Shown here: positions 27,667 to 54,986 of the stretch, one piece after another
Position numbering within the stretch: the first letter of the stretch is position 1
How the letters are laid out: the number at the start of each line of letters is the position of its first letter
Origin: Clostridia bacterium
GTDB lineage: Bacteria; Bacillota; Clostridia; Oscillospirales; Acutalibacteraceae
Reading direction: 5' to 3'
DNA: 64,000 bases
NCBI GenBank assembly: GCA_017623235.1
Contig: JAGAPN010000033.1
Coordinates: 13,725 to 77,724, forward strand
Program-made: the position numbers and the translations under genes
Notes under the pieces: generated by a model
Database searches by the model: none
Told to the model about the DNA's origin: nothing
What the model saw: only the letters and a program-made list of their open reading frames with translations

Positions 27667-29112
27667 GTGAACACCTCGGGAGCGACTGTTTATTACGTTT
27701 CGGGCGACGGAAACGATGATAACGACGGAAGTGAGTCAAGTCCCTGGCAGACTATAGCCAAGGTGAATGAGGTTGTTGCCGCCAAGGCCGAGGACACTAA
27801 AATGGTCTTCTGCTTTAATCGTGGCGACACCTTCCGTGGTCAGCTCTCAGCAAAAAGTAACGTTACATATACCGCCTACGGTACAGGCGCCAAGCCCCTA
27901 ATTACCGTATCTCCGGAAAATGCGGCAAAGTCTTATCGCTGGCAACAGGTAGATGACGGTATATATATGTACGGCTTTAAAATTATGGACGTAGGCTCGG
28001 TATTCTTTAATGACGGACAGTCCTACGCCGCCAAGCGTTGCCCAGATATTACGGTAAACGGTGGAGTTTACTCGGCCGAATACGGTTACGAGGCCCTTGA
28101 GGATATGCAGTTTATCTGGATACCCGAAAGCCTTTCCACCGCTATAGGCCTTACCAATGCCAACGCCGAAAATATAAAAGGCTATCTTTATCTCCGCTGT
28201 GATAAGGGGAATCCGGGCGAAATTTTTGATAATATTGAGCTATCATTAAGACAATACGTTATTGCTCTTTCCTCTAACAGCTCAAATATTACCGTTGATA
28301 ACCTCGCCGTTAAATACGGTGGCGCCCACGGAATAGGCGGCTCTCATCAGTCTGACCTTTTGGTGCAAAACTGTGAGGTTGCTTACATTGGTGGCGGTAT
28401 TCAGCAATATAAGGCTTCCGAATTGACGGAAGACACATATATTCCTTGCCGCTATGGTAACGGCGTAGAGGTCAATGCTTCCTGTGACGGTTATACTGTG
28501 CAGAACTGCTGGGTACACGACGTATTTGATGCAGGCGTAACCCACCAGACAGGCACTAATCACGATGTACAGTATACCTTTAAGGATGTTACCTATAAAA
28601 ACAACCTTATTGAAAACTGTACCTATTCAGTTGAATATTTTGCCTATCGCGGCGCTACTACCAACGCCGATATGCTGCTGGACAATATTCTTATTGACGG
28701 TAATATTATGCGTAATGCCGGTGACGGCTTCGGTGTAACCCGCACCCTGCAGCCCTCTATGTGGAATATGGCTACCCATATTATGGGCTGGTACAGATCG
28801 CCTAACCTTTTGGTAGAGGGTAGCAGCTTTGTTATAAGCAACAACGTTTTCGACAGGGTAATATATACTCAGCCCTATTCAAGCGGCCCCAGAATAAACA
28901 GCTCTCTTATGATAATTGCCGCCGAGGATAAGGCCGACCTGCCCGAGCTAAAAGGTAATACCTACATTAACTATATAGGCAATGCCTTTGCCTATTACGG
29001 CGAAAATCTTGAGCTTATGACCGCCGCTGATATCAAGGCTTACACCGTAAGCAATTCTGCGGCGAAGCTTCTCGGTGATAGTGACGGCGAGATGTATTAT
29101 CTTAATAAATAA
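27667..29112 (+). CDS. Right-handed parallel beta-helix protein with no signal peptide (cytoplasmic paralog)
   Basis: VYYVSGDGNDDNDGSESSPWQTIAKV, NCEVAYIGGG, NCWVHDVFDAGVTHQ, NNLIENCTYSVEYF. GTG start with a poor RBS, so the start is uncertain. Confidence 0.65.
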   Translation: MNTSGATVYYVSGDGNDDNDGSESSPWQTIAKVNEVVAAKAEDTKMVFCFNRGDTFRGQLSAKSNVTYTAYGTGAKPLITVSPENAAKSYRWQQVDDGIYMYGFKIMDVGSVFFNDGQSYAAKRCPDITVNGGVYSAEYGYEALEDMQFIWIPESLSTAIGLTNANAENIKGYLYLRCDKGNPGEIFDNIELSLRQYVIALSSNSSNITVDNLAVKYGGAHGIGGSHQSDLLVQNCEVAYIGGGIQQYKASELTEDTYIPCRYGNGVEVNASCDGYTVQNCWVHDVFDAGVTHQTGTNHDVQYTFKDVTYKNNLIENCTYSVEYFAYRGATTNADMLLDNILIDGNIMRNAGDGFGVTRTLQPSMWNMATHIMGWYRSPNLLVEGSSFVISNNVFDRVIYTQPYSSGPRINSSLMIIAAEDKADLPELKGNTYINYIGNAFAYYGENLELMTAADIKAYTVSNSAAKLLGDSDGEMYYLNK

Positions 29113-29117
29113 AGTTT

Positions 29118-29170
29118 ATGCGCCCTTGCTCTTATTTACAGATAAGGGCGGGGCGCATTCCGCTTTTTTA
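29118..29170 (+). terminator. Rho-independent terminator candidate
   Basis: ATGCGCCC (29118-29125) pairs with GGGCGCAT (29151-29158). An alternative inner stem is GCGCCCTT/AAGGGCG. A TTCCGCTTTTTT run follows. Confidence 0.5.
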
Positions 29171-29234
29171 GAAATGCGGCATAAGTCCATAAAAGATATG
29201 CGCTTATGCTACCTTTTTAGAGGAGGAAATTATT

Positions 29235-30725
29235 ATGGATATCTTAAAAACAGTTGATATAAAGGCAGAGGAGCTGAAAGCCAGGGTGCTTTCCGCCCCT
29301 GACCTTACCCCAAAGAAGGGCGCCAGGGTCTACTACTTTGCCGCAGCAGGTGACGATAGTAATGACGGTCTTACCCCTGCGACACCCTTTAAAACCCTGG
29401 AAAAGGCAAGCTCTCTTGCTGATAAGGACAATACCGAGCTTACCTATTTCCTCTTTAATAGGGGAGATATTTTCCGCGGTCAACTTAATTGTGGCTCAAA
29501 TTGCGTTTATGCGGCCTGGGGAGAGGGAGATAAGCCCGTAATCACCGCTTCTCCCGAAAACGGCGCAGGGGCCGAAAAATGGAGCCTTGTGGAAGGCTCT
29601 GATAACATCTGGGTCTACTATAAGGATATGATGGATGCGGGCGCCCTCTTCTTTGAGAATGGCGGCTATGCCGTAAAGCGTATTCCCAATATTGAAAACG
29701 GCAAATATGAGTTTGGTATGGAAATCCTTGAGGACGGCCAGTTTATGAACGGCTATACCGAGGAGCAGGCCCTGCGTCTTAATAACTCCACCGCAAAGGA
29801 AATTACGGGTCCCTTTTATTTCCGCTGTGACAGGGGCAACCCCGGTGAGATTTATTCCTCTATTGAGTTTGCCGACCGTATATACTGTGTCAATTTGCCT
29901 TACCACGGTGAGCATATTACCATAGATAATCTTTGTGTAAGGAACGTTGGCGCCCACGGTGTGGGTGGCGGCTTTATCACCGACCTTTTGGTGCAGAACT
30001 GTGAAATCGGCAATATTGGCGGCGGTATCCAGTCCTATCATAAGTGTTCAGTAGATGGACTTATGATATACGGCCGCTACGGTAACGGTGTAGAGCTGCA
30101 CTCCTGCTGCAACGGCTACGTGGTAAGAAATTGCTGGGTACATGACGTTTATGATGCGGGTCTTACCTGGCAACAGGGCCACAACCACTCAGAAGAGCTG
30201 GTTATGGGTAACATTGAATTTTCCGATAACCTCATCGAGCGCTGTATTTATTCTATAGAATATTTTGCCCGCCGCTCGGCCAGCACCAACGTGCCCGCTG
30301 TCAATGAAAACATAAGGCTCAGCGGCAATATTGTGCGTTATGCAGGTCATGGTTTTGGAACCCAGCGCACCCTTTCCTATTATGAGTGGAATATGGCCAC
30401 CTCGATTATGGGCTGGCATTGGTCGCATAACGTAAGAAGGGGATATTTCGTTATCGAAAACAATATTTTAAGCCACTCTACCCCCTCATCTCCCGACCGC
30501 CCCTTAAGGCAGAATACCTCAACCCTCCTTATTACCGCAGAGGATAAAAAATATCTCCCCGAAATGAAGGGCAACACCTATATAGGCCTTAAGGATAACC
30601 AGTTTGCCTACTACGGCAAAAACATCAAAAGCGGTCCCATTCCCTTTGTAAAGGCTGAAGACGGTCTCTCTGCCGAGGAGCTTTTCGGGGACAAAACAGG
30701 TAAGATTTTTATGGTTGAGAAATAA
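29235..30725 (+). CDS. Right-handed parallel beta-helix protein with no signal peptide (cytoplasmic paralog)
   Basis: Strong RBS AGAGGAGG. VYYFAAAGDDSNDGLTPATPFKTLEKA, NCEIGNIGGG, NCWVHDVYDAGLTWQ, DNLIERCIYSIEYF. Collinear with the 27667 paralog. Confidence 0.7.
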   Translation: MDILKTVDIKAEELKARVLSAPDLTPKKGARVYYFAAAGDDSNDGLTPATPFKTLEKASSLADKDNTELTYFLFNRGDIFRGQLNCGSNCVYAAWGEGDKPVITASPENGAGAEKWSLVEGSDNIWVYYKDMMDAGALFFENGGYAVKRIPNIENGKYEFGMEILEDGQFMNGYTEEQALRLNNSTAKEITGPFYFRCDRGNPGEIYSSIEFADRIYCVNLPYHGEHITIDNLCVRNVGAHGVGGGFITDLLVQNCEIGNIGGGIQSYHKCSVDGLMIYGRYGNGVELHSCCNGYVVRNCWVHDVYDAGLTWQQGHNHSEELVMGNIEFSDNLIERCIYSIEYFARRSASTNVPAVNENIRLSGNIVRYAGHGFGTQRTLSYYEWNMATSIMGWHWSHNVRRGYFVIENNILSHSTPSSPDRPLRQNTSTLLITAEDKKYLPEMKGNTYIGLKDNQFAYYGKNIKSGPIPFVKAEDGLSAEELFGDKTGKIFMVEK

Positions 30726-30728
30726 TCG

Positions 30729-30757
30729 TTGACAGAAAAAAAGAAAAGTCTTATCAT
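30729..30757 (+). promoter_or_regulatory. Candidate sigma-A promoter in front of the GRE1 operon
   Basis: TTGACA (30729-30734), exactly 17 nt of spacer, TATCAT (30752-30757). This lies ~55 nt upstream of the GRE1 ATG. Confidence 0.5.
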
Positions 30758-30812
30758 AAAAACACTAAAAACCTTGTTGAATGGCATCAAATAGTTATCC
30801 GGAGGTAAGAAA

Positions 30813-32795
30813 ATGACAAAAACCTATAACTTCATTCTTGAAAAAAAGCATCATCAGTTCCGCCACTCGGTAGACTGGAATCTGGCCGAGGAATATGCCG
30901 AAAAGGGACTTTCTCCCATACAGCGTATGGCCGACCGCTTTGAGAGGCTGTGTAAGGAGGAAAAGGCGGTTATTTTAGAGGGCGAGCAGATAGTTTTTCT
31001 TCGTACAGTTTCCAACCTGCCTGCCATTTTCACCGATGCCGAGTGGGAGGAGATAAAGGCAGGCCACCATATTCACGAGCTGGGCTTTCTTTCAAATCTT
31101 TCTCCCAACTATTACGATACCATAGCTACAGGACTTCTTAAAAAGAGGGAAACCGCCGATGAGTATGGAAAACAGGCTATAGATAATATAATCGCCCTTT
31201 CGGATAAATACCTGGCCGAGGCCAGGGCTCAGGGCAGGGAAGACCTTGTGGAGGTGCTCACACAGGTACCCCGCTATCCTGCAAGGAATTTCCGCGAGGC
31301 CCTGCAGTTCTTCCGTATTCTGCACTTTGCTCTGTGGCTTGAGGGCAATTATCATAATACGGTAGGCCGTTTTGACCGCTACATATATCCTTACCTTAAA
31401 GCCGATATGGATAAGGGTATTTACACCTATGACAGCGCCCTTGCCCTTTTAGAGGATTTCTTTCTCTCCTTCAATAAGGACAGCGATATTTACGTAGGCG
31501 TTCAGCAGGGTGATAACGGTCAAAGTATGATGCTGGGCGGCATTGATGAGGAGGGCAACGACGTTTACAACCTGCTTTCCGAGCTTTGCCTTAAGGCCTC
31601 CTGCAATAATAAGATGATAGACCCCAAAATTAATTTGAGGGTTTCTAAAAGCACGCCCGCCGACCGCTATACCGAGGCCACTAAGCTTACCAAGGCAGGT
31701 CTGGGCTTCCCCCAGTACTCCAACGACGATGTGGTTATTCCCGCCCTTGAGGCTATGGGCTACGACCACGTCGATGCCACCAACTATACCGTTGCCGCCT
31801 GCTGGGAGTTTATCGTGCCCAACGTTGGCGCAGACGTGGCAAATATCAGCGCTATGTCCTACCCCAAGGCGGTAGATACCGCATTACATAAATCCCTTTC
31901 CACCGCCGAAACCTATGAGGATTTCTTTGCCGCCGTAGAGGGCGAGATAAAGGCCGAGTGCGACCGCATCTGTAGCGGTATAAAGGACCTTTGGTTTATT
32001 CCTTCTCCCTTTATGAATGTACTTATGGACTGCAACATTTATGAAGGCGGAAAATATAATAACTTTGGTATCCACGGCACAGGTATTGCCACCGCTGCCG
32101 ACAGCCTGGCGGCTATAAAGAAATACGTTTTCGAGGAAAAGAGCCTTACCGCCGCCGAACTTATTGCGGCAGTAGATTCAAACTTTGAAAACACCCCCGA
32201 GCTGCTGCACAAGCTTCGCTTTGAAACACCCAAGCTTGGTAATAACGATGACTTTGTTGACGGTATTGCCACCGCCCTGCTGGATGCATTTGGCGCCGCA
32301 CTTAAGGGCAGGGTAAACTGCCGAGGCGGCATATTCCGCGCAGGTACGGGCTCTGCTATGTACTATCTCTGGCACGCCAATGAAATAGGCGCATCCCCCG
32401 ACGGCAGAAGAGAAAAGGAGCCCTTCGGCACCAACTATTCGGTATCCCTTTTTGCCAAGGTAAAGGGTCCCGTTTCGGTAATTGCTTCTATGACCAAGCA
32501 GCATTTTGAGAACGCTATGAACGGCGGCCCCCTGACCCTGGAATTCCACCAGAGCGTGTTTGCCGATGAGGATGGCATCGAAAAGGTTGGCCTGCTGGTT
32601 AAAAACTTTATTGACCGTGGCGGTCATCAGCTTCAGCTTAATACCGTAAACCTGGAAAAAATGCTGGATGCCCAAAAGAATCCCGATGCATATAAGCAGC
32701 TTGTGGTACGAATCTGGGGCTGGAGCGCCTACTTCGTAGAGCTTGACCGTGAGTATCAGGACCACGTTATTGCCCGTCAGGCATATACCGTATAA
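30813..32795 (+). CDS. Glycyl radical enzyme (PFL-fold), unusually short at 660 aa, function unknown (GRE1)
   Basis: C-terminal glycyl motif QLVVRIWGWSAYFVELD (Gly636, codon 32718-32720). Thiyl loop NYTVAACWEFIVP (Cys330-x-Glu332, Cys codon 31800-31802). Other GRE blocks are NFREALQFFRILHFALWLE, NGQSMMLGG, GFPQYSNDDVVIPAL, GASPDGRR and GGHQLQLNTVNLEKMLDAQKNPDAYKQL. GGAGG RBS. Confidence 0.85.
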   Translation: MTKTYNFILEKKHHQFRHSVDWNLAEEYAEKGLSPIQRMADRFERLCKEEKAVILEGEQIVFLRTVSNLPAIFTDAEWEEIKAGHHIHELGFLSNLSPNYYDTIATGLLKKRETADEYGKQAIDNIIALSDKYLAEARAQGREDLVEVLTQVPRYPARNFREALQFFRILHFALWLEGNYHNTVGRFDRYIYPYLKADMDKGIYTYDSALALLEDFFLSFNKDSDIYVGVQQGDNGQSMMLGGIDEEGNDVYNLLSELCLKASCNNKMIDPKINLRVSKSTPADRYTEATKLTKAGLGFPQYSNDDVVIPALEAMGYDHVDATNYTVAACWEFIVPNVGADVANISAMSYPKAVDTALHKSLSTAETYEDFFAAVEGEIKAECDRICSGIKDLWFIPSPFMNVLMDCNIYEGGKYNNFGIHGTGIATAADSLAAIKKYVFEEKSLTAAELIAAVDSNFENTPELLHKLRFETPKLGNNDDFVDGIATALLDAFGAALKGRVNCRGGIFRAGTGSAMYYLWHANEIGASPDGRREKEPFGTNYSVSLFAKVKGPVSVIASMTKQHFENAMNGGPLTLEFHQSVFADEDGIEKVGLLVKNFIDRGGHQLQLNTVNLEKMLDAQKNPDAYKQLVVRIWGWSAYFVELDREYQDHVIARQAYTV

Positions 32796-32801
32796 TTTGT
32801 T

Positions 32802-33566
32802 ATGATAGGTACTATTTTTGACATTAAAGAAATGGCGGTACACGACGGACCGGGCATCCGCACCACGGTGTTTTTTAAGGGATGCCCCCTTCGGTGTATC
32901 TGGTGCCACAATCCCGAGGGGCTGGTTGCTCAGCCCCAGCTTATGTTTAAGGAAGCCCGCTGTACAGGCTGTAGGCGTTGTTTTGTCCAATGCAACCACC
33001 CCGACTGCAGGAAATTTGGCAGATGCATTCACGTCTGCCCCCAAAACTGCCTTGAGGTTGCAGGTCGCACCGTTGAGGCAGGGAAGCTGGCCTCGGAGCT
33101 TAAAGCCTCTGCCGATATTTTAGGTGATACCTTCGGCGGCTTTACCTTTTCGGGTGGAGAGCCCCTGGCCCAGCCCGAATTTCTTTTAAGTCTTATAGAG
33201 GAACTAAAACCCCATCACCTGTGTATCGAAACCTCGGGCTATACCGACCCCGATACCTTCGGTAGGGTAATAGAAAAGCTCGATTATATTATTATGGATA
33301 TAAAGCTGGCCGATTCCGAGAAGCATCAGAAATATACAGGGGTAGGAAACGAGCTTATCCTTAAGAATTTCAGCATACTGAAAAACAGCTCAAAGCCCTA
33401 CCTTATCCGCACCCCCTTAATACCCGATATTACCGATACCGAGGAAAATCTGGCGGCTATAAAGGAAATTATAGGGGGCAGCCCCTGGGAAAAGCTGCCC
33501 TATAACGTCGCCGCAGGGGCAAAGTACAAAATGCTGGGTATGAAATTTAAAATGGAAGGAAAATAA
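32802..33566 (+). CDS. Glycyl-radical-enzyme activating enzyme (radical SAM), AE1
   Basis: HDGPGIRTTVFFKGCPLRCIWCHNPE (CxxxCxxC). An 8-Cys insert CTGCRRCFVQC...C.....C...C...C is consistent with two auxiliary Fe-S clusters. GGEPL SAM motif. Starts 6 nt after GRE1. Confidence 0.85.
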   Translation: MIGTIFDIKEMAVHDGPGIRTTVFFKGCPLRCIWCHNPEGLVAQPQLMFKEARCTGCRRCFVQCNHPDCRKFGRCIHVCPQNCLEVAGRTVEAGKLASELKASADILGDTFGGFTFSGGEPLAQPEFLLSLIEELKPHHLCIETSGYTDPDTFGRVIEKLDYIIMDIKLADSEKHQKYTGVGNELILKNFSILKNSSKPYLIRTPLIPDITDTEENLAAIKEIIGGSPWEKLPYNVAAGAKYKMLGMKFKMEGK

Positions 33567-33569
33567 AAG

Positions 33570-35276
33570 ATGAAGGTCCGTGCAATAAGAGCCGACGGCA
33601 GTATAGATATTTTAGAACCCGCCGTAGAAACCAAGGGAAATATCACTACCGTTTCCATAAAAAAGGAAGAGGTGGGCGCCGCCGAGTACGTAGATTTTCT
33701 CTACGATTATCTCACCGCAAGGGAAGGGGACGAGGGATATTTCGTCCTGCCCTTTGACTGTCAGAACGGCGTTACCGCTTGCTATTTTAACCACAAAGAG
33801 GATACCGAGTTTGTTTCCGACTTTTCCCATATTTATTGCTACGGAATGAAGAAGGCCGAGGGTGGTATTTTCGGCATTATTACAGGCTGTAAATACGACT
33901 ACGCCCTGGTAGCAGGGGTAAAGGACGGAAGCTATTACGCTTATCCCCGTTTTAAAACCGAGGGTGAGATTCCCGAGGACGATATAGAGGTACAGTATTA
34001 TTACCTTGAAAATGGCGACTATAACGAAATGGCCGCTGTTTACCGTAAAAACCAGTTGGAAAAAGAAGGCTGTGAGCCTCTGGAGGTCAGGGTAAAGAGG
34101 GATCCACGCCTTGCCCGTGCCGCTGACAGTATTGCGGTGCGTGTGCGCCAGGGCTGGAAGCCTGTTCCAAGCCCTGTAGAAAATCAGACTGCCGATACCG
34201 AGCCCGATATGGTGGTGGCCTGTGACTACGACCGTGTGGGTCAGCTTGTGGATGAGTTTGAGCGCCAGGGTATAGACAAGGCAGAATTTTGCCTTGTGGG
34301 CTGGAACCGTATGGGTCACGACGGCCGTTATCCCCAGATATTCCCGCCCGAGCCCAAGCTGGGTGGCGAAGAAAAGCTTCGCCGTCTTATTAAGAATACC
34401 AAGGCCATGGGCTATAACATTGTAGGCCACACCAATGCCTCCGATGCCTATACCGTATCGGAGCTGTGGGATGAAGAATACCTTCTCAAAACCCGTGACG
34501 GCAGTTTTTTTAAAATGGATTCCTGGTCCAGCGGCCGCGCACATAAGATTTGCCCTAAAAGAATGTACGAGCGTTTTGGTGAGGACCATAACGAAAGACT
34601 GGCCGAGCTGGGCTTTGAGGGCATCCACTACAGCGACGTTATAACCATTCTGGCCATAAAGCGCTGCTTTAACCCCGACCACCCCCTTACCCGTAAGGAG
34701 GGTGCTATGTGGTACAGAAAGCTTATGGAAAGGGCCAGGGTCAATTTCGGCGGCTTTTCTTCCGAATCGGGTTACGATTACGCCGCCTCATCCCTTGACT
34801 ATGCTATGTATATCAGCTTCCACCTTGATAACAAGGATATGCCTGATATCTGTGATGAGCAGATACCCTTTTGGGAAATTGTCTATCACGGCATAATTCT
34901 TTATAACCCAGGTACATATACCCTTAATTACACCGCCAAGAAAAAGGAAAACCGCCTTAAATTCTTCGAGTTTGGCGGCCGTCCTCTGGTGTGTGTTTAT
35001 GCCAACTTTGCGGCAGACCGCAACTGGATGGGTCTTGAGGATATCCGTATGGATACCGATGAGGAAATGCGGGAAAGCGTTTCTAAAATAAAGGTTATGG
35101 CCGATGATTACAAGTGGCTGGAGGAAGTGCGTTTTGCCTTTATGGACAGCCATAAAAGGGTTGCCGACGGAGTTTATGAAATCGCATATTCAAACGGCAT
35201 AACCTTGACTGTAGATTATAATCTTGCCAAGGTTACGATGCAGGGAGATGGAATATGGAAGGAATTGACTATATAA
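33570..35276 (+). CDS. Cytoplasmic paralog of the 11812..14010 lipoprotein (unassigned family, TIM-barrel glycosidase-like)
   Basis: No signal peptide. Shares blocks with the lipoprotein (listed at that feature). The core CLVGWNRMGHDGRYPQIFP...MGYNIVGHTNASD...FEGIHYSDV resembles a (b/a)8 glycan-active fold. Inference only. Confidence 0.45.
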   Translation: MKVRAIRADGSIDILEPAVETKGNITTVSIKKEEVGAAEYVDFLYDYLTAREGDEGYFVLPFDCQNGVTACYFNHKEDTEFVSDFSHIYCYGMKKAEGGIFGIITGCKYDYALVAGVKDGSYYAYPRFKTEGEIPEDDIEVQYYYLENGDYNEMAAVYRKNQLEKEGCEPLEVRVKRDPRLARAADSIAVRVRQGWKPVPSPVENQTADTEPDMVVACDYDRVGQLVDEFERQGIDKAEFCLVGWNRMGHDGRYPQIFPPEPKLGGEEKLRRLIKNTKAMGYNIVGHTNASDAYTVSELWDEEYLLKTRDGSFFKMDSWSSGRAHKICPKRMYERFGEDHNERLAELGFEGIHYSDVITILAIKRCFNPDHPLTRKEGAMWYRKLMERARVNFGGFSSESGYDYAASSLDYAMYISFHLDNKDMPDICDEQIPFWEIVYHGIILYNPGTYTLNYTAKKKENRLKFFEFGGRPLVCVYANFAADRNWMGLEDIRMDTDEEMRESVSKIKVMADDYKWLEEVRFAFMDSHKRVADGVYEIAYSNGITLTVDYNLAKVTMQGDGIWKELTI

Positions 35277-35788
35277 AGGTTATTGCCGAGATTATTGGCT
35301 ATGTTGCGGTGTTTTTTGCCTTTGTAATGTTCCAGCAGACCCATAGAAAAAGGCTTATACTGTGTAAGCTGATTATTGACCTGCTCTGGATAACCCATTT
35401 TGTTATGCTTGGGGGTTACACCATAGTTTGCACCACCTCAATCTCGGTTTTCAGGGAATTGGTGTTTATAAACCGTGATAAGCGGTTCTTTAGCAGCAAA
35501 TTCTGGCTTTTTGCCTTTATTCTGTTTTATGCAGCTTCTCCAATTTTTACCTGGGAAGGAATACATAGTATTTTTCCTGCCCTAAGCTCGGTTGCCGCCA
35601 CTATCAGTCTGTGGGTACGGTCGGTAAAGCGTACCAAGCAGATTTCTCTTGCGGTGAGCGTAAGCCAGCTTATTTATGAGGCTGTTGTGTGCTCCTATGC
35701 GGCCATGACAGGAGAGATTGTGACCATTGTATCAATAATAATTTATTTCATAAGGACGAGGATGAAAAATGGAAAAAGTCTTCTTTAA
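35255..35788 (+). CDS. Small polytopic membrane protein, YgjV-family-like
   Basis: 177 aa, about 5-6 TM segments. The N-terminal pattern IIGYVAVFFAFVMFQQTHRKRLILCKLIIDLLWITHFVMLGGY resembles E. coli YgjV. Overlaps the upstream gene by 22 nt and the downstream gene by 20 nt. Confidence 0.45.
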   Translation: MEGIDYIKVIAEIIGYVAVFFAFVMFQQTHRKRLILCKLIIDLLWITHFVMLGGYTIVCTTSISVFRELVFINRDKRFFSSKFWLFAFILFYAASPIFTWEGIHSIFPALSSVAATISLWVRSVKRTKQISLAVSVSQLIYEAVVCSYAAMTGEIVTIVSIIIYFIRTRMKNGKSLL

Positions 35789-37853
35789 AGCAAGACCCGT
35801 TTGGGCAAAAGACAAGGAACAGGAAAGCAACTGCCGCCTGCAGTTTAAGGCTACGGTGCCCGATGGAAAGCAGGCAGAGCTTCGCCTTGCCACCAGCGGC
35901 GTTTACCAGGCCTGGATAAATGGAAAATTTGTGGCCTACGGCCCGGCCCGTGCAGGTAAAAATCATTTCCGTGTGGAGCGTCTGGACGTTTCCTCATACC
36001 TGGATTCACCCCTTAATACCGTAATAATTGAGGTTGCAGGCTATTACTGCGCCAATTTCTATATTATGAAGCAGGATTCCTTCCTGCAGGCCGAGCTTAT
36101 CCTTGACGGAGAGGTAGCGGCGGCCACGGGCTATGATTTTTCTGCCAGGGTAAACCCCTATTATTATCAGAAAATTCAGCGCTTCAGCTACCAGCGTACC
36201 TTTGCTGAAAGCTATAAGCCTATGGACCCTGCCGATACCTTTTATACCGACGATAGGGCAGGGGAAGAGGAGCTGGCCGTTACCGCCGATAAAACGATTA
36301 TCGAAAGAACGGTGCCATATCCTCAGTTTGAACACCTGGCCCCCACCGCCCTGTTTTCGGGCAGAGTAGAGCATATAATACCCGATGAATATAATTTTGA
36401 CCGCTATTTCTGGCAGGTAGGTTTCCGTGAGGGTGAGCCTACAGGCTGGAAGGCTAACGAAATAGAAACCTCCCCCGAAAAGGAGTGGCAGGAAATTTCC
36501 TTCACCCCCACCGAGGATGCTCCGTCGGGCCTGCTGAAGGCAGATACCTATACAATGTATTCCTTCCCCTTTAACGCTACGGGTATGCTGTCCCTTACCC
36601 TTACCTGTAAGGAGCCTGCCACGGTTTATCTTGCAGGTGACGAGATAATCGACGGTAAAAAGATAGACCCCAAGCGTGTGCGCTGCTGTAATATCGTTCC
36701 CTTCAGGCTTAAGGCAGGCCGCCACCATATTCAGACCTTTGAGGTCTATACAATGAAATACCTGCAGATAACTGCGGTAGGCGCCGACCTTGAAATTGAG
36801 GATATTTCTATGATAGAGTACAAGGCGCCCTATATTCCCGTGCCGCAGTTTTCTGATGAAAGACTGCAGGCAATATCGGCCGCCGCTGTAGAATCCTACC
36901 GTCAGAACGCCGTTGACCTCTTTACCGACTGCCCCTCCCGAGAGAGGGCTGGCTGGCTTTGCGACAGCTTCTTTTTGGCCCGTGCCGAGTATATTCTCAC
37001 AGGTAAAAATATCGTTGAAGAGGCCTTTTTAGAAAACTTCCTTCACGAGGAGGTTTACGGCAAGGTGCCTGTGGGTATGTTCCCAATGTGCTATCCTGCC
37101 GACCACAATTACGGCCGCCATATTCCCAACTGGGCAATGTGGCTGGTTGTAGAGCTGCTGGATTATAAAAAGCGTACAGGCAAAACCCAGCTTATTGACC
37201 GCTTTAAGGATAAGGTTTACGGCCTTATAAAGCATTTTGAGGACTTTGAGAATGAGGACGGCCTCCTTGAGGACCTTCGCAGTTGGGTGTTTGTTGAATG
37301 GTCCCGCGCCAACGATACCGATATGGTGCAAGGTGTAAATTATCCCAGCAATATGATGTATTACGCCACCTTAAAGGCGGCGGCAGAGCTTTACGGCGAT
37401 GCCAATCTGGAGGTCAAGGCCGAGAATATAAAGGAAAAAATCCTTCAGCAGTCCTTTGACGGTGAATTTTTCGTAGACCGAGGCGCACGCACCTCTATCG
37501 GCGTATTCCCCGTGCCCGAATCCACCGAGGTCTGCCAGTATTACGCCTTTTTCAGCGGCGTGGCTACTCCCGAAAGCCACCCCGACCTCTTTAAAACCCT
37601 TATAAATGATTTCGGTCCCCACCGTGACCTTACCACAACCTATCCCCAGGTGCATAAGGCGGCCCCCTTTATAGGCAACTATATGCGCCTTGATATACTT
37701 AAAAACAACGGCTACGATGACGTCGTTGAGGAAAATATAAAGGGCTATTTCTACGGTATGGCCCAGCGCACAGGCACCCTTTGGGAAAAGGCCGAGCCTA
37801 CTAACAGCTGCAACCACGGCTTTGCAAGCTGTGTGCTTTACTGGCTTGCCTGA
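35769..37853 (+). CDS. GH78-like (alpha-L-rhamnosidase-type) six-hairpin glycoside hydrolase, cytoplasmic
   Basis: N-terminal ARPVWAKD...LATSGVYQAWINGKFV..GPARA pattern. FTDCPSRERAGWLCDSFF matches the DCP.RER.GW.GD signature of rhamnosidase-type (a/a)6 enzymes. Confidence 0.65.
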   Translation: MEKVFFKARPVWAKDKEQESNCRLQFKATVPDGKQAELRLATSGVYQAWINGKFVAYGPARAGKNHFRVERLDVSSYLDSPLNTVIIEVAGYYCANFYIMKQDSFLQAELILDGEVAAATGYDFSARVNPYYYQKIQRFSYQRTFAESYKPMDPADTFYTDDRAGEEELAVTADKTIIERTVPYPQFEHLAPTALFSGRVEHIIPDEYNFDRYFWQVGFREGEPTGWKANEIETSPEKEWQEISFTPTEDAPSGLLKADTYTMYSFPFNATGMLSLTLTCKEPATVYLAGDEIIDGKKIDPKRVRCCNIVPFRLKAGRHHIQTFEVYTMKYLQITAVGADLEIEDISMIEYKAPYIPVPQFSDERLQAISAAAVESYRQNAVDLFTDCPSRERAGWLCDSFFLARAEYILTGKNIVEEAFLENFLHEEVYGKVPVGMFPMCYPADHNYGRHIPNWAMWLVVELLDYKKRTGKTQLIDRFKDKVYGLIKHFEDFENEDGLLEDLRSWVFVEWSRANDTDMVQGVNYPSNMMYYATLKAAAELYGDANLEVKAENIKEKILQQSFDGEFFVDRGARTSIGVFPVPESTEVCQYYAFFSGVATPESHPDLFKTLINDFGPHRDLTTTYPQVHKAAPFIGNYMRLDILKNNGYDDVVEENIKGYFYGMAQRTGTLWEKAEPTNSCNHGFASCVLYWLA

Positions 37854-37865
37854 TAAGGAGCATTT

Positions 37866-39947
37866 ATGAAGATAATAAATAGCTTTGATTTCTCTGATAT
37901 TACCCTTTATTATATCTTAAACGATTCGGACAGGGCGGTTATGACCCTGCTGCCAAAGGGTACAGAGTGTGATTTTTTCAGTAAAAAGAACACTGCCGTT
38001 TTCAGCAACAGGGCATCCCTTGCCCACCTGCATTTGAGCCACCACAACGTGGGTATGCTCTCCAATAGCTTTAAATGCGGCGAAAGCCTTTACGGCCTTA
38101 AGTTTAAGGAGCAGACCGTAAGGGAAGAGGAAAACAGCGTCACCGTTATCACCACCGAGGAAGCGGACGAGGGCTACGGCATTCGTCACTACCTTAAATG
38201 GTATAGGGGTGAGGCAGGCTTTGAGGTGTCCACCGAATTTTACAACAGCAGTAAAACCGATATGACCCTTGAGCTGCTTACCAGCGTTTCCCTTGACGCC
38301 CTCTCCCCCTGCCTTGATAACGAGGGCAGTAAGGATTTACTTTTCCACCGCTTTAAGGCGGGCTGGTGTATGGAGGGCCTGCATCAGGTTAGCAATCTCA
38401 CTTCTCTTGGGTTAGAGCGGGCCTGGGCCACCTCTGCCGAAAGCATTAAGCTGGGGGCTACAGGTAGCCGAGCCGTAAGGGAATACCACCCCTACGCCGC
38501 CCTTGAGGATACTAAAAACGGCATAATCTGGGGCGTCTACCTTGCCCACAATGCCTCCTGGCAGCTGGAGCTTACCCGTATGGTAGACGGTGTTTCGCTG
38601 TCCATCGGTCTTGCCGACAGCACCTTCGGCCTTTGGAGTAAAAATATTAAAAGCGGCGAAAGCTTTTTATCTCCCACCGCTTTTGTTTCGGTGGCCAAGG
38701 GCTCTATTGCAGAGCTTTCCAACCGACTGCTTTCAATGCGCCACAGGGCTATTGATGCCTACGGCGAAGAGGGCCTTCCCATAATCTATAACGATTTCGT
38801 CACCACCTGGGGCAAGCCTACAGAAAAGGCCCTGCTTAATATGGCCGATATTCTTTCCCACGGCAAAACCAAATATTTGGTAATGGATGCAGGCTGGTAC
38901 GATGATAAAAAGGCTATAGGTGACTGGGTAGTTAAAACCGAGGCTTTTCCCTCGGGTATGAGGGCCTATGCCGATAAAATCCGAGAGAAGGGTATGGTGC
39001 CCGGTATCTGGATGGAGTTTGAATGTGCCGACTCCAAAGCCGAGGCCTTTGGCCCCCACCTTGACCACTTAAAACTTACAAAAAACGGTAGGGTAATAGT
39101 GGGCGAGGTTATTAACGGCCGCCGTGAAAATTTCTTTGATTTCAGGAAACCCGAGGTTATAGAGTACCTGGATGAAAAGGTTATTAAATTCCTTAAGGAA
39201 AACGGAATCGGCTACATAAAGGTGGATTATAACACCATTCCCGGTGTGGGAGTGGACGGTGAGGATTCCCCCGGCGAGAATCTTCGTCAGCACAACGCCG
39301 CCGTCAGAGATTTCTTTATAAAAATGAAGCGGGAAATACCCGACCTCATTATTGAAAACTGCGCCTCGGGCGGTTGCCGCCTGGAGCCCTCTATGATGGA
39401 TATTACGGCTATGAGCTCGGCCAGCGATACCCACGAGGGCTATGAGTGCGCCGTGGTTGCGGCTAATCTCCACTATCTTACTCCGCCAAGACAAAATCAG
39501 ATATGGTGTACCTTAAAGCCTGAATATTCGGCGGAAAGATTTTCTTACATTATTTCCCAGGGCTTTTTGGGCCGACTTTGCTGGTCGGGCCTTATTGCCG
39601 AGCTTGATGAAGCCAGACTAAGGGAGATGTTCCTGGCTGAGGAGCTTTATGAAAGGGTTTCCCACATCATAAAGCGGGGCAACAGCTATATTTACCGCAC
39701 CGCCCCTGTCAGCTTTTACACCCCCGAGGGCACCCAGGCCGTTGTTCGCTACAGCGAGGACGGAAGCGAGGCCCTGGTGGTGGCCCATAGCTTTAACGCC
39801 GCCACTTCTCTGGAAATTGAGCTTGAGGGTAGCTTTAAGCTTAAGGAGAGCCTATATAGCGGCGGTATGACCCTTGATGGCACTCGCCTGACCATTACCC
39901 CAACTGCAGATTTTTCGGGTAACGTTTTCTACCTTTTAAAGGAGTGA
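37866..39947 (+). CDS. GH36 alpha-galactosidase-like
   Basis: YLVMDAGWYDD, PGIWMEFE, GIGYIKVDYN and ENCASGGCRLEPSMM (GH36 nucleophile and CxxGGxR blocks). AAGGAG RBS. Confidence 0.8.
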   Translation: MKIINSFDFSDITLYYILNDSDRAVMTLLPKGTECDFFSKKNTAVFSNRASLAHLHLSHHNVGMLSNSFKCGESLYGLKFKEQTVREEENSVTVITTEEADEGYGIRHYLKWYRGEAGFEVSTEFYNSSKTDMTLELLTSVSLDALSPCLDNEGSKDLLFHRFKAGWCMEGLHQVSNLTSLGLERAWATSAESIKLGATGSRAVREYHPYAALEDTKNGIIWGVYLAHNASWQLELTRMVDGVSLSIGLADSTFGLWSKNIKSGESFLSPTAFVSVAKGSIAELSNRLLSMRHRAIDAYGEEGLPIIYNDFVTTWGKPTEKALLNMADILSHGKTKYLVMDAGWYDDKKAIGDWVVKTEAFPSGMRAYADKIREKGMVPGIWMEFECADSKAEAFGPHLDHLKLTKNGRVIVGEVINGRRENFFDFRKPEVIEYLDEKVIKFLKENGIGYIKVDYNTIPGVGVDGEDSPGENLRQHNAAVRDFFIKMKREIPDLIIENCASGGCRLEPSMMDITAMSSASDTHEGYECAVVAANLHYLTPPRQNQIWCTLKPEYSAERFSYIISQGFLGRLCWSGLIAELDEARLREMFLAEELYERVSHIIKRGNSYIYRTAPVSFYTPEGTQAVVRYSEDGSEALVVAHSFNAATSLEIELEGSFKLKESLYSGGMTLDGTRLTITPTADFSGNVFYLLKE

Positions 39948-39951
39948 TAAT

Positions 39952-40944
39952 ATGAAGCTTAATCCTATTTTTACAAATCATATTATTTTTCAGGCTGAAA
40001 AGCCCATCCGATTTTACGGTGAGGGAAGCGGCACAGTTACCGTCACCTTAAACGGCGCCACAAAAACCGAAGCCTTTTCGGGAGATAGCTGGCTTATCGA
40101 GCTACCTCCTATGGCCTACGGCGGACCCTATACCGCCGAAATCGAGCTGAACGGTGAGAAAACTCTGCTCTCTGACGTCTTTGTGGGCGAGGTGTTATTG
40201 CTGGCAGGTCAGTCTAATATCGAGCTGACCCTGGGTGGCACCAATTACCCTGTAGATAAGTATGAGAGCAATTCTATGCTTCGCTGTTTTGCCCTTGAAA
40301 GATTTAATAAAAACGGCAGTATAACCCCTGCCGACGGCTGGTTTGCCTGCGATAAGGACGACCGCCTGGGCTCCTGGTCGGCAATAGGCTATCATTTAGG
40401 TCAGCTTTTAACCAAAAAACGGGGGATTGCCGTTGGCCTTATCTTCTGTTATCAGGGGGCCTCGGTAATTGAGAGCTGGATGCCCGCCGAGCTGGCGGCC
40501 CAGGAAAAATTCTATCTTCCTAAAGAGGAAAAGTACGATTCTCCCTTCGTTCACACCGAGCATAACGAAAACGGAGCGCTGTATAACGCCGTTTTCCGCC
40601 AGACAATACCTTATAGCGTAGGCAACGTTATCTGGTACCAGGGCTGCTCAAATACAGGCCCCTCGGAGTATAAGATTTATACCGACCTGCTTTGCACCCT
40701 TATTGACCGCTGGCGTCAGGACCTTATGGACGAGGTACTGCCCTTTACCGTTGTTCAGATAGCCGATTGGGACCAGAGAGATGATGCCGCCTGGAAGGGT
40801 ATTCAGCAGGCACAGCTTAAGATTACAGAGGTTCGCGGTAACGTCAAAACCGTAATTTCCGCCGACCTTTGCGAGGTGGATGATATTCATCCCCCCACAA
40901 AGCATCTTCTTGCCCGCCGAATTTATAAAACTATATTTGAGTAA
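39952..40944 (+). CDS. Sialate/carbohydrate O-acetylesterase-like SGNH protein (GQSN type)
   Basis: VGEVLLLAGQSNIE (GQSN nucleophile block), YQGASVIESW, VIWYQGCSN, DDIHPPTK. Confidence 0.7.
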   Translation: MKLNPIFTNHIIFQAEKPIRFYGEGSGTVTVTLNGATKTEAFSGDSWLIELPPMAYGGPYTAEIELNGEKTLLSDVFVGEVLLLAGQSNIELTLGGTNYPVDKYESNSMLRCFALERFNKNGSITPADGWFACDKDDRLGSWSAIGYHLGQLLTKKRGIAVGLIFCYQGASVIESWMPAELAAQEKFYLPKEEKYDSPFVHTEHNENGALYNAVFRQTIPYSVGNVIWYQGCSNTGPSEYKIYTDLLCTLIDRWRQDLMDEVLPFTVVQIADWDQRDDAAWKGIQQAQLKITEVRGNVKTVISADLCEVDDIHPPTKHLLARRIYKTIFE

Positions 40945-40980
40945 AAAAGACCTATGAAGCGTTTGCTTCATAGGTCTTTT
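40945..40980. terminator. Bidirectional rho-independent terminator between convergent genes
   Basis: AAAAGACCTATGAAGC gttt GCTTCATAGGTCTTTT, a perfect 16-bp inverted repeat with A-run and T-run arms. It lies between the stop at 40944 (+) and the stop at 40982 (-). Confidence 0.85.
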
Positions 40981-40981
40981 A

Positions 40982-41713
40982 CTATTTCAGCTCCTTTGTG
41001 TGGAGGCCCGAGGTAGAAATAGGCTCGCCCCCTGCAAAAAGGTGGGAGGTATCACCTATACCTGCGAAAATTCCGTGGGCAATGGGGCGGTCGGCAATAT
41101 GCTTTTCCATATACAGGGTGGTCACCGAGGAGGGGGAGAGGTATATAGAATTCCACACCGCAATAAGGGGCATATTCATAACGTGGGCTATAAGTGAGGT
41201 GCCAAGACCAAAGTGACAGAAAAATGCAATTGTGTGGTCTTCCTCTTTACCGGGGGTTATCTCGTAAATATTACCTTTACGGTTATAGCCTCTGTCAGCA
41301 AGCAGTTTGTCAAACTCCCTGCAGTTGGACTGATAGGTTTCTACAATTCTGCTACCCTCTAAAAGCTTACTCCGATTCCAGCGTTCAATACTGAAAACGT
41401 CGGGGTCATCGGTCCAAAGCTCGGGGGGCATATTCCAGGGACTTTTCATATTTTTAAAATAGTCGGTGTCGTATTCCCAGTCCAGCATTGCGGGGAATTC
41501 CCTCAGCCAGTCCAGCACGGTGGGGGTGATGCCCAGAGCATCAGCGGTGGGCTTTGCAGTAAGTCGGGCCCTGCCATGGGGAGATACGAATATTTCGTCT
41601 ATCTTTTCGTTTCTTAGCTTTTCACCCAGCAAAAAGGCCTCGCGCTGACCCTTTTCGGTCAGGGAATCGGTAGGATAGTAGGGGTCGCCGTGGCGGATTA
41701 TAAGTATTCTCAT
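40982..41713 (-). CDS. Histidine phosphatase superfamily protein (phosphoglycerate-mutase-like branch)
   Basis: MRILIIRHGDPYY (RHG catalytic motif), GRARLTA, and a second His in FFCHFGLG. The start overlaps the upstream stop by 1 nt (TGATG). Confidence 0.8.
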   Translation of the reverse strand: MRILIIRHGDPYYPTDSLTEKGQREAFLLGEKLRNEKIDEIFVSPHGRARLTAKPTADALGITPTVLDWLREFPAMLDWEYDTDYFKNMKSPWNMPPELWTDDPDVFSIERWNRSKLLEGSRIVETYQSNCREFDKLLADRGYNRKGNIYEITPGKEEDHTIAFFCHFGLGTSLIAHVMNMPLIAVWNSIYLSPSSVTTLYMEKHIADRPIAHGIFAGIGDTSHLFAGGEPISTSGLHTKELK

Positions 41714-42666
41714 CAGTAGTCCTCTCCTTTATAAAAGGCTCTTGTCATAGCGTGGTTGCCTTCGCCGTCTACCACGTGCAGCAGTATGAATTTGCCTGTG
41801 CCGTCAATATCACAGCAGAGTTCACCTATCTCCTCCCCATCCGGAGCGTTTGCGGCGGCGGTGGCTCCGCTTTCGCTCAGCATAGCAATCTGCGCCGCAG
41901 GGGAGGTTTTGGCATAAAGTTTTCCGTCTTTTGTATAAGCCTCAAAAATCTGCGGTCCCGTAGAGCAGTATACGTCGCCCTTATCCATAGCGGCGATTAT
42001 CTCATCGTATTCCAGCCTGTCGGCCAAAATGTAGGTAAAGCCGCCGAAGGAATCGTTCTGCGGGTGGTCAAAGGGCAGGCAAAAGCTGTGGTTATCGTCT
42101 GCGCCAAAGGGGTAAAGTCTTTTTCCTCTGCGAAGCAGGTCAAGATAAATATCGGGTGTGAAGGAAAGGGCGCCGCCGAAATTGGCGGTAATGCAGTTAT
42201 AAAGCTCAAAACCGCTGACACCCTCTACCTGCATAAATTCGTCCTCGGTAAAAAGGGCCCAGTTGGGGTGGTTTATGGTAACGAAATAATTTTTTGCCCT
42301 GGCGTCGGCAATCATCTCGTTTATGTATTCCATACTGTAGTTTCTGGGGTTGCAGGGAACCTGCTGAAAATCGTCCGGATGACGGGAGATTATGTTAAAA
42401 TGAAAGGCCTTGCGTAGGTTAAAGGAGTTATCGCCCTGCTGGGCAACGTCCAGCTCGCAGGAGGTAAGGGGCAGAAAATCCTCATCGGCAAGGTCGCTGT
42501 GGCTTTGCACCTTAAGGTGGTCGGAAAAAGCAAATACCGAATAGCCTCTTGCCTTGTAGGCTTCTTTTAGCTCCTCCGGGGTCAGCCTGCCGTCAGAGCA
42601 GGTGCTGTGGGAGTGCATATTAGCCTTAAACTGCTTTTTTTTCGGAGAAATAAGGTAGTTTTTCAT
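41713..42666 (-). CDS. PHP-domain metal-dependent phosphoesterase
   Basis: KANMHSHSTCSDG (HxH), FAFSDH, TINHPNW, GADDNHSF. Confidence 0.75.
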   Translation of the reverse strand: MKNYLISPKKKQFKANMHSHSTCSDGRLTPEELKEAYKARGYSVFAFSDHLKVQSHSDLADEDFLPLTSCELDVAQQGDNSFNLRKAFHFNIISRHPDDFQQVPCNPRNYSMEYINEMIADARAKNYFVTINHPNWALFTEDEFMQVEGVSGFELYNCITANFGGALSFTPDIYLDLLRRGKRLYPFGADDNHSFCLPFDHPQNDSFGGFTYILADRLEYDEIIAAMDKGDVYCSTGPQIFEAYTKDGKLYAKTSPAAQIAMLSESGATAAANAPDGEEIGELCCDIDGTGKFILLHVVDGEGNHAMTRAFYKGEDY

Positions 42667-52621: not shown

Positions 52622-52632
52622 CGTTATCTCCT

Positions 52633-54969: not shown

Positions 54970-54986
54970 AAACCCTGTCTCCGTTT

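Follow-up and report, generated by a model that had tools for sequence, protein, structure and literature searches.

A clade of compact glycyl radical enzymes, found at the head of a glycan operon in a Clostridia bacterium, that probably acts on a carbohydrate

Glycyl radical enzymes (GREs) perform chemically difficult steps of anaerobic metabolism, and the assignments of CutC, HypD, IslA and YbiW/PflD each exposed a host-relevant pathway of gut microbes. A published fingerprint of the family near the C-terminus is RVXG[FWY] (PMC11528403). The 1,2-eliminase and isomerase classes are defined by a C-x-E motif, whose Glu hydrogen-bonds to the substrate hydroxyl and deprotonates it (PMC13450708). 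The only characterised GREs that act on carbohydrates are the 'anhydroglycolysis' isomerases YbiW and PflD (8id7, 8id0, 8yjo), C-x-E enzymes that break a ring C-O bond in anhydro-sugar phosphates (PMC13450708). Here we describe GRE1, a GRE of only 660 aa that is encoded with its activase AE1 in a stretch of 64,000 nt from a Clostridia bacterium of the Acutalibacteraceae (assembly GCA_017623235.1, contig JAGAPN010000033.1, positions 13,725 to 77,724, forward strand), hereafter called the window. An earlier note, written from the sequence alone, had reported an unusually short GRE leading a glycoside hydrolase (GH) operon. GRE1 and AE1 indeed open an operon of seven genes, in which they are followed by cytoplasmic glycan enzymes and a membrane protein. 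The features of this operon, in window coordinates, are:

30729..30757, + strand: sigma-70-like promoter sequence TTGACA-17-TATCAT in the 87-bp gap 5' of the GRE1 gene (11/12 consensus match)
30801..30805, + strand: ribosome-binding site GGAGG, 7 nt 5' of the ATG (sequence inspection)
30813..32795, + strand: GRE1, 660-aa compact GRE of the 'ACWE / RVWGW' clade (open reading frame (ORF), translation, Pfam, AlphaFold2, Foldseek)
31095..31097, + strand: Asn95 codon, clade-invariant, in the column of the canonical beta-1-loop His (His164 of glycerol dehydratase)
31800..31808, + strand: Cys330-Trp331-Glu332 codons (thiyl-radical Cys and C-x-E motif), clade-invariant, aligned with Cys433/Glu435 of glycerol dehydratase
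32709..32726, + strand: Arg633-Ile-Trp-Gly636-Trp-Ser codons of the glycyl radical loop (translation, alignment)
32802..33566, + strand: AE1, 254-aa radical-SAM GRE activase (CX3CX2C and 8-Cys ferredoxin-like insert; TIGR02494)
33570..35276, + strand: cytoplasmic DUF5696 protein (Pfam DUF5696, 2.3e-43; no signal peptide)
35255..35788, + strand: YgjV-like small polytopic membrane protein (Pfam Imp-YgjV, 2.6e-26; hydrophobic along its whole length)
35769..37853, + strand: GH78-like six-hairpin glycosidase (Pfam Bac_rhamnosid6H, 1.8e-20)
37866..39947, + strand: GH36-family glycosidase of alpha-galactosidase or beta-L-arabinopyranosidase type (Pfam Melibiase, 6.6e-34)
39952..40944, + strand: SASA-family carbohydrate O-acetylesterase (Pfam SASA, 4e-20)
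40945..40981, no strand assigned: hairpin with a 15-bp stem and a GTTT loop, between the operon and the convergent gene 40982-41713 (sequence inspection)

GRE1 scores above the gathering cutoffs of both Pfam models of the family, as the profile search proposed in the earlier note was meant to check (PFL-like PF02901, E = 1.2e-80; Gly_radical PF01228, E = 3.8e-19). According to the translation, its glycyl loop reads R633-I-W-G636-W-S-A-Y-F and matches the GRE fingerprint except for an Ile in place of Val; the consensus of its relatives is R-V-W-G-W. The Cys loop A-A-C330-W-E332, already recognised from the sequence, carries the C-x-E motif of the eliminases and isomerases, and HMMER alignments place Cys330 on Cys433 and Glu332 on Glu435 of glycerol dehydratase. 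The adjacent gene encodes the radical-SAM activase expected for a GRE: AE1 has the cluster motif C28-x3-C32-x2-C35 and passes TIGR02494 with 243.8 bits (cutoff 174). The insert of eight additional Cys residues (positions 54, 57, 60, 64, 69, 75, 79 and 83) is present as described before; such an insert is normal for TIGR02494 activases, though compact in AE1, and so does not set this activase apart.

An AlphaFold2 model of GRE1 was of high confidence (predicted local distance difference test (pLDDT) 92.7, predicted template modelling score (pTM) 0.92). Foldseek aligned it to solved GREs with query-normalised template modelling (TM) scores of 0.85-0.90 at 18-25% identity, the partners being glycerol dehydratase, propanediol dehydratase, CutC, HypD and PflD. 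In this model, GRE1 is a compact but complete ten-stranded GRE barrel that keeps the mid-protein Cys hairpin. Fold, Gly636 loop and Cys330 loop are all preserved, and we are highly confident that GRE1 and AE1 together form a functional GRE of a new clade. Structure prediction had been suggested as a way to see which elements are missing and what lines the pocket; it supported the fold, and the deletions and the pocket were read from alignments.

Solved PFL-like GREs range from 739 to 1150 aa, with the exception of 38la (687 aa, named formate acetyltransferase), and GRE1 is shorter than these. Its ORF opens at the first start codon past an in-frame stop and the ribosome-binding site is well placed, in agreement with the earlier reading. 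Nearly all of the 120 closest database clusters (82-99% identity) are 659-664 aa long, and full-length relatives at 40-63% identity measure 650-709 aa and align from residue ~6 to the end. A few entries are longer (709-722 aa at 83-84% identity), apparently through miscalled start codons. A truncated pseudogene is ruled out by this conservation of length and N-terminus among close homologs and 40-63% representatives alike; homologs of normal length, which the earlier note had named as evidence for truncation, did not turn up among the full-length relatives at 40-99% identity (650-709 aa). The shortness is therefore genuine, but its cause is not a short N-terminus, which is retained in the alignment with GREs of canonical length. 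Instead, the alignment points to internal deletions of ~50 columns after residue 75, 11 after 143, 15 after 362 and 5 after 394 (~94 columns in total), the first of which is common to a neighbouring clade. Shortness is thus a clade trait, due mainly to the loss of ~50 residues after residue 75. With ~100-180 residues fewer than most solved PFL-like GREs, this scaffold is a natural experiment on the minimal needs of a GRE.

The clade is also marked by its sequence signature. In 23 relatives at 33-63% identity, Cys330, Trp331, Glu332, Trp635, Gly636, Trp637 and Ser638 are invariant, and all 120 close homologs have a W-G-W loop. A search for remote relatives covered 1.84 billion representatives, and the 150 best were typed by their glycyl loop: 42 were W-G-W (median length 656 aa), 27 were W-G-F (median 723 aa) and 16 showed the canonical A-G-Y (median 796 aa). 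In a rough distance (neighbour-joining) tree on a trimmed alignment, every W-G-W protein fell into one clade, which is nested among the W-G-F proteins, lies apart from the canonical A-G-Y group and includes a few offshoots without Gly and/or Cys. The phylogenetic placement that had been called for thus separates GRE1 from the canonical enzymes. On this tree and alignment, the clade appears monophyletic with the signature A-A-C-W-E, R-V-W-G-W-S and Asn95.

The nearest tree neighbours of the W-G-W clade are mid-size 'R-V-W-G-F' GREs of 660-770 aa (P0151, P0154, P0161), which are likewise uncharacterised in function. They resemble GRE1 in having Trp before Gly, mostly Trp in the C-x-E motif and the ~50-residue deletion after 75. 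However, they are only 33-36% identical to it, have Phe after Gly and keep the segment after 143 that the W-G-W proteins have lost. This comparison bears on the Trp-flanked glycyl site, which had been singled out as atypical. The site is there, but the Trp after Gly is not unusual, as it fits RVXG[FWY] (PMC11528403), and the idea that a Trp-flanked Gly marks a different radical chemistry is unsupported. The Trp before Gly is found across the wider R-V-W-G-F radiation as well. What is unusual in the clade is the Trp before Gly together with the Trp between Cys and Glu. An aromatic W/W/W cage around the Gly/Cys radical pair could be an adaptation of the minimal GRE scaffold.

Could GRE1 be a decayed or non-catalytic remnant? 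Its unusual shortness would fit such an origin, and some relatives truly lack Gly and/or Cys (P0129, P0169, P0173, P0174, P0176 and P0191). However, Gly636, Cys330 and Glu332 of GRE1 are intact and clade-invariant, and the compact length has been kept across hundreds of species. A dedicated activase, a ribosome-binding site and a promoter-like site accompany the gene, and the predicted fold is confident. A remnant is therefore extremely unlikely. The six relatives themselves (29-45% identity), some of which stop short of the Gly loop, may be non-radical 'pseudo-GREs' with another role.

We then compared GRE1 with the characterised GREs. The NCBIfam equivalog models of HypD, HpfG, HpsG, PflD-type enzymes, CutC, indoleacetate and hydroxyphenylacetate decarboxylases and pyruvate formate-lyase (PFL) gave 78-274 bits, against cutoffs of 994-1150, and none was passed. 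The best of them was HypD with 274 bits (cutoff 1100). The PFL2/glycerol dehydratase subfamily TIGR01774 (288.8 bits, cutoff 678) and the PflD/YbiW-type model NF007437 (228.5 bits, cutoff 1109) were not reached either. By these profile scores, GRE1 is not any of the characterised GREs. This supports its reading as an uncharacterised GRE distinct from the diol, glycerol and choline enzymes, and clustering with a characterised GRE, which would have spoken against a new function, was not seen. A literature search found no paper on this clade, on a GRE beside GH36, GH127 or GH78 genes, or on DUF5696, and a 2026 review of GREs lists no enzyme matching the clade (PMC13450708). Proteins of the clade are already in databases as 'pyruvate formate-lyase (family protein)', and neither the curated families (June 2026) nor the searched literature assign a function to them.

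Among single sequences, the best match of GRE1 is the glycerol dehydratase of Clostridium butyricum (1r8w, E = 2e-70), which is also the top Foldseek match; the diol and glycerol dehydratases (1r8w; 5i2g, 9rco) give TM scores of ~0.87. Glycerol and propanediol dehydratases share with GRE1 the ten-stranded barrel, a C-x-E Cys loop, the C-terminal glycyl radical domain and a TIGR02494-type activase. On the other hand, they are only 22-25% identical to it, GRE1 is 127-183 residues shorter, and their motifs are G-C-V-E and R-V-A-G-Y, as opposed to A-C-W-E and R-V-W-G-W. CutC and HypD are C-x-E-type eliminases of similar fold as well (TM 0.86-0.89), but the scores of GRE1 against their models are far below cutoff (210 vs 1050 for CutC), the gene contexts are unrelated, and at the specificity position CutC has Asp where GRE1 has Asn.

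Differences are also predicted for the pocket, whose residues were assigned by sequence alignment and predicted secondary structure. In glycerol dehydratase, His164 is the proposed proton donor to the leaving hydroxyl (PMC13450708). Its segment GVGH164VSVDY aligns with avsNltpdY of the clade profile (HMMER), so that His164 corresponds to Asn95. This column is His in 31 of 31 comparison GREs of canonical length, PflD included, and Asn95 is invariant in the clade; the leaving group would therefore be handled otherwise than in the known dehydratases. Two other positions of glycerol dehydratase, Asp447 and Tyr640, which we take to be pocket residues, are replaced by Asn344 and Gly513 in the HMMER alignments. 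Of the diol pocket His164, Glu435 and Asp447, only the Glu is kept. In turn, Lys272, Asn274, Gln301, His421, Arg509 and Glu577 are present in >=90% of the clade, are rare in canonical GREs and lie on predicted barrel strands, and a loop Y-x-G-x-Q-Q-G-D-N-G-Q is conserved at residues 227-237. The pocket would accordingly be very polar. Arg509 may roughly correspond to the sulfonate-binding Arg678 of IslA, an approximate match by residue offsets only that we regard as a lead.

The conserved loop belongs to a nearly invariant, clade-specific stretch at residues 225-243 (window ~31485-31541; D-I-Y-V-G-V-Q-Q-G-D-N-G-Q-S). With a pLDDT of 70-76, it is among the two least confident regions of the model, and it stands in place of the canonical loop around Tyr339 of glycerol dehydratase. 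This stretch may serve as a mobile lid or bind the substrate.

Two sets of related loci were surveyed, with genes called as simple longest ORFs and grouped by our own clustering. The Clostridia set consists of the best 80 of at least 594 stretches that encode a relative, with one genome per species; these loci come from gut and rumen Clostridia, among them the cultured Ructibacterium gallinarum. The second set comprises 80 loci from at least 589 metagenome stretches, seeded with a subclade ~50% identical to GRE1. It holds many human-gut loci with Bacteroidota-type regulators and TonB-dependent receptors, and dereplicates to 41 GRE groups. The activase adjoins the GRE in 72 of 81 loci of the first set and in 63 of 76 of the second, and across the ~160 loci the GRE and its activase alone form the conserved unit. 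The operon layout of the window does not qualify as one, because, apart from the window, only one relative (L001, 89% identical) has DUF5696 and YgjV genes after the pair.

The partners of the pair are linked to sugars in both sets. In the Clostridia set, 36 loci carry an AraC regulator, mostly divergent and immediately upstream, and 10 a LacI regulator (46 in total). Among the 180 same-strand neighbours within four genes, the GH36 clan is commonest with 17 members (12 Raffinose_syn, 5 Melibiase), followed by GDSL (8), DUF4867 (6), DUF4886 (5), GH31 (4), GH51 (3) and GH78, GH3, GH109 and GH28 (2 each). In plants, the Raffinose_syn-type partner has a GH36 homologue (7exf, deposited as galactinol-sucrose galactosyltransferase 6; E = 2.9e-48). 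For DUF4867, a cupin metalloprotein, a role as sugar mutarotase or ring isomerase has been proposed (PMC11968277). When the full flanks of each locus are considered, GFO/IDH/MocA oxidoreductases are present at 9 loci, GH29 at 4, and GH94, GH2 and FGGY kinases at 3 each; Cof-type HAD phosphatases were found at 3 loci. In the second set, 27 of the 41 groups encode a transporter of monosaccharide type no more than four genes away (22 MFS Sugar_tr, 5 CUT2 ABC), 13 have an aldose 1-epimerase and 7 a GH127 beta-L-arabinofuranosidase. The typical order there is activase-GRE-Sugar_tr-epimerase-GH127, with mostly less than 45 bp between GRE and transporter. Single loci show the order Melibiase-Sugar_tr-GRE-activase, or CUT2 ABC transporter-activase-GRE with an AraA-like gene seven genes farther downstream. 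These glycosidases, monosaccharide transporters and aldose 1-epimerases in two independent sets of 80 loci lend computational support to the idea, first put forward in the earlier note together with the suggestion of such a survey, that the radical chemistry acts on a sugar-like compound released by the locus.

Some loci have a particular gene arrangement. A GDSL/SGNH esterase gene lies beside or between the GRE and activase genes in L001 (11996-12727), L015, L017 and L019, and after the activase gene in L069; a DUF4867 cupin gene is found between the two in L003 (11990-12640) and L027. This embedding suggests that the encoded proteins act directly on the substrate or product of the GRE. In the sub-group L100-L118 from human-gut metagenomes (~62% identical to P0125), the GRE gene is followed on its 3' side by a convergent gene for a 1302-aa protein without Pfam match, then by genes for two small proteins (122 and 202 aa) and an aldose 1-epimerase, while a Na+/H+ exchanger gene is located upstream. 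Two or three compact GREs, each with an activase, occur within one genome, in tandem or close together, in L018, L073, L078 (Ructibacterium gallinarum DSM 107454) and L057, which suggests an expansion of paralogs.

One alternative is a diol or polyol dehydratase. The substrate of GRE1 would then be an aglycone or a sugar alcohol; galactosylglycerol or galactolipids could provide glycerol, fucose or rhamnose could provide 1,2-propanediol, and inositol or an alditol are further examples. The glycerol dehydratase 1r8w tops both the single-sequence and the Foldseek lists, the C-x-E motif is present, and neighbouring GH36 alpha-galactosidases, GDSL lipase-like genes and GH29/GH78 genes could supply aglycones. 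However, identity to the solved enzymes is low and their pocket is changed at His164, Asp447 and Tyr640 (to Asn, Asn and Gly). The aldehyde-processing and shell-gene context of the glycerol and propanediol dehydratases was not found either: neither aldehyde dehydrogenases nor iron alcohol dehydrogenases are among the 25 commonest neighbour families, and a microcompartment shell gene gave no match in the window (with an approximate PduA sequence as query), in line with the earlier observation. As this explanation also leaves the mutarotase linkage unaccounted for, we consider it very unlikely.

Among solved structures, PflD gives the best profile match (8yjo, E = 8.9e-128) and the highest query-normalised TM score (8id0, 0.90), and it has the C-x-E motif in common with GRE1. 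GRE1 might accordingly be a YbiW/PflD-type isomerase that acts on a phosphorylated sugar or on an anhydro-sugar (such as a 1,5-anhydro-alditol or 3,6-anhydrogalactose) and opens an ether ring to a deoxy-ketose. The GFO/IDH/MocA, FGGY kinase and Cof-type HAD phosphatase genes listed above would suit such a pathway, and the DUF5696 protein of the window shows a marginal match to a 3,6-anhydro-D-galactosidase (5opq, E = 0.0036). GH127 also includes a 3,6-anhydro-D-galactosidase member. Several observations argue against this assignment. The NF007437 score is far below cutoff, and PflD, like all comparison GREs of canonical length, retains the His that is Asn95 in GRE1. YbiW and PflD act on 6-phosphorylated 1,5-anhydro-alditols, whereas the context of GRE1 consists of MFS/ABC sugar import, mutarotase and glycosidases. 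No phosphotransferase system component, aldolase or kinase ranks among the common neighbour families, and the linked MFS/CUT2 transporters import unphosphorylated sugars. Moreover, an aldose 1-epimerase implies a reducing sugar, while 1,5-anhydro-alditols have no anomeric centre. An isomerase of this type thus seems unlikely.

A third explanation is that GRE1 cleaves glycosides by radical chemistry. Abstraction of hydrogen from C2 or C3 of a disaccharide or small glycoside and elimination of the glycosidic oxygen would free an aglycone beyond the reach of the neighbouring hydrolases. Such an activity would agree with the co-location with many GH families and esterases, and with the tandem paralogs in single genomes (L018, L073, L078), as in glycosidase families. 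The pocket is probably enlarged, given Gly513 in place of Tyr640 of glycerol dehydratase, and the window is predicted to import oligosaccharides through CUT1-type ABC systems. However, the partners in the second subclade are a monosaccharide porter and a mutarotase, and known GRE active sites are small and buried (PMC13450708). Over the range of 33 to 99% identity, the putative pocket residues hardly vary, and this speaks against a diversification of glycoside specificities. Radical glycoside cleavage is therefore quite unlikely. What disfavours all three of these explanations is the linkage to mutarotase and monosaccharide porter and the changed pocket.

Sequence comparison, predicted structure and gene context taken together are best explained by a C-x-E-type radical C-O cleavage of a free, unphosphorylated reducing sugar, although for this reading as a whole the chances are slightly under even. 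Its parts differ in strength. That the substrate is a small molecule derived from carbohydrate is likely. For a free reducing monosaccharide, as the context would suggest, the case is evenly balanced, and a sugar of the arabinose or galactose type is conceivable but rather doubtful. The L-arabinose/D-galactose theme comes from the recurrence of GH127, GH51, GH36 (alpha-galactosidase/beta-L-arabinopyranosidase type) and an AraA-like gene. In Bacteroides, too, arabinose operons include genes for a mutarotase and a permease. The linked aldose 1-epimerase or DUF4867 protein would make sense if, as we propose, the enzyme needs one particular anomer.

The following steps are modelled on the established mechanism of C-x-E GREs (PMC13450708). 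AE1 with S-adenosylmethionine would take a hydrogen from Gly636 to give the glycyl radical, which would move to Cys330 as a thiyl radical. On the substrate, the thiyl would abstract a hydrogen atom at a carbinol or hemiacetal carbon, and Glu332 would deprotonate the hydroxyl at the same carbon to yield a ketyl radical. The neighbouring C-O bond would then break, by dehydration or ring opening, and the product radical would regain a hydrogen from Cys330. The substrate would be a free unphosphorylated reducing monosaccharide made in the cytoplasm by the co-encoded glycosidases. In the window, its source would be an acetylated plant glycan whose oligosaccharides enter through the upstream ABC systems and are trimmed by the enzymes of the operon (DUF5696, GH78-like, GH36 and SASA). 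Candidate outcomes are a 2-deoxy-aldonolactone (abstraction at C1, loss of the C2 hydroxyl), a 1,5-anhydro-ketose or 3-deoxy-ulose (abstraction at C2), or ring opening. As a candidate activity we propose anomer-specific hydrogen abstraction at C1/C2 and C-O scission to a deoxy-lactone, deoxy-ulose or anhydro-ketose.

Several points weigh against this proposal. The neighbourhood fits a substrate as well as a product, and a small glycoside as well as a free sugar. In the surveyed loci, the pair is not accompanied by a consistent set of enzymes for a downstream pathway, so the fate of the product stays unexplained. The partner glycosidases are diverse (GH36, GH127, GH51, GH78, GH29, GH31, GH2, GH3) and therefore single out no one sugar. 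The invariant Arg509 might mean that the substrate is anionic, for instance a uronate, a phosphate or a sulfate ester. With the conserved His, the usual proton donor for the leaving hydroxyl is gone, and simple dehydration fits less well. A fringe member at 38% identity (L090) lies in a biosynthetic-looking cluster. Finally, the pocket assignments are alignment-based and the genes of the related loci are simple ORF calls. In the fringe locus, a W-G-W GRE of 702 aa (P0147) and its activase are encoded among AMP-binding enzymes, carrier proteins, a B12-binding radical-SAM enzyme and a GT2 glycosyltransferase, whereas the other loci look catabolic.

The clade is large, with at least 594 stretches in species-representative genomes and at least 589 in metagenomes. 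It is carried by Clostridia and by bacteria with a Bacteroidota-type gene context in samples from human and other animal guts. Rather than a new class of system, it is a C-x-E-type GRE whose scaffold is compact and whose radical site and pocket are remodelled; its substrate would be new and is probably a carbohydrate. It is possible, though we would not expect it, that the clade performs a previously unknown radical transformation of a free, unphosphorylated aldopyranose, for example L-arabinose or D-galactose. If so, this reaction would be an ATP-independent entry into sugar fermentation, and common dietary sugars would have a radical, oxygen-sensitive catabolic route that is missing from current pathway maps.

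The operon itself is tightly packed, with intergenic gaps of -22 to +12 bp; AE1 begins six bases after GRE1. The TTGACA-17-TATCAT sequence reported in the earlier note is the best promoter-like site in 29000-41800, but as 13 such sites were found there compared with 14.6 in shuffles, i.e. no excess, the putative promoter is a consensus match only. At the other end, the hairpin agrees with the operon end at 40945 given in the earlier note: it comes after the last stop codon and is probably a bidirectional terminator. The automatic terminator scan made no call there because the T-run is interrupted.

Pfam supports the downstream glycan enzymes as they had been read from the sequence, and the N-termini of the four enzymes after AE1 have no signal-peptide-like features (judged by eye). 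The protein formerly described as unassigned and TIM-barrel-like can now be placed as a DUF5696 protein. Its best matches among solved structures are GH129 alpha-N-acetylgalactosaminidases (5wzq, E = 1.6e-13; 5wzn, 4.9e-13), with weak matches to GH101, so that it appears to be a distant relative of GH129 and GH101 glycosidases. The YgjV-like protein is possibly a transporter. The GH36 protein matches a beta-L-arabinopyranosidase model (9.7e-48, under that model's cutoff) and the alpha-galactosidase 8k1a (E = 4.2e-32). In the first locus set, the clusters of the GH78-like, GH36 and SASA proteins are shared by 7, 11 and 5 related loci, respectively.

Upstream of the operon lies a long co-directional gene run (5037-30725, + strand). 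Its products of secreted or lipoprotein type include a 938-aa protein that carries a solute-binding domain, another DUF5696 protein (732 aa, lipoprotein-like) and a GDSL-domain protein of 2008 aa; four ABC permeases, two beta-helix proteins that lack signal peptides and several proteins without Pfam match are also encoded. The proteins encoded at 5037-27583, solute-binding proteins among them, have signal or lipoprotein-type N-termini, the ABC permeases excepted. The run resembles a polysaccharide-utilisation locus directed at an acetylated plant glycan. The picture suggested by the layout is one of extracellular processing and import, followed by the cytoplasmic operon headed by the GRE. Further upstream (1155-4860, + strand), a gluconolactonase-like SGL protein, a PfkB kinase, an SDR protein and a UxuA-like dehydratase are grouped as a sugar-acid catabolic module, which would matter if the GRE product were a lactone or deoxy-acid.

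At 46711-49702 (- strand), the window contains a second, unrelated GRE of 741 aa, which is 24% identical to GRE1, together with its own 259-aa activase. The Cys loop of this GRE is G-C-N-W-M, without a C-x-E motif, its Gly loop is R-V-T-G-F, and it passes none of the NCBIfam equivalog models. The genes upstream of it on that strand (49695-56285, - strand) encode three GFO/IDH/MocA oxidoreductases, a xylose-isomerase-like TIM barrel and a 778-aa GDPD-domain protein; a divergent AraC regulator gene accompanies the cluster (56406-57260, + strand). One of the oxidoreductases shows below-cutoff similarity to the IolG and levoglucosan-dehydrogenase models. The second GRE may thus be part of an anaerobic cyclitol or keto-sugar pathway.

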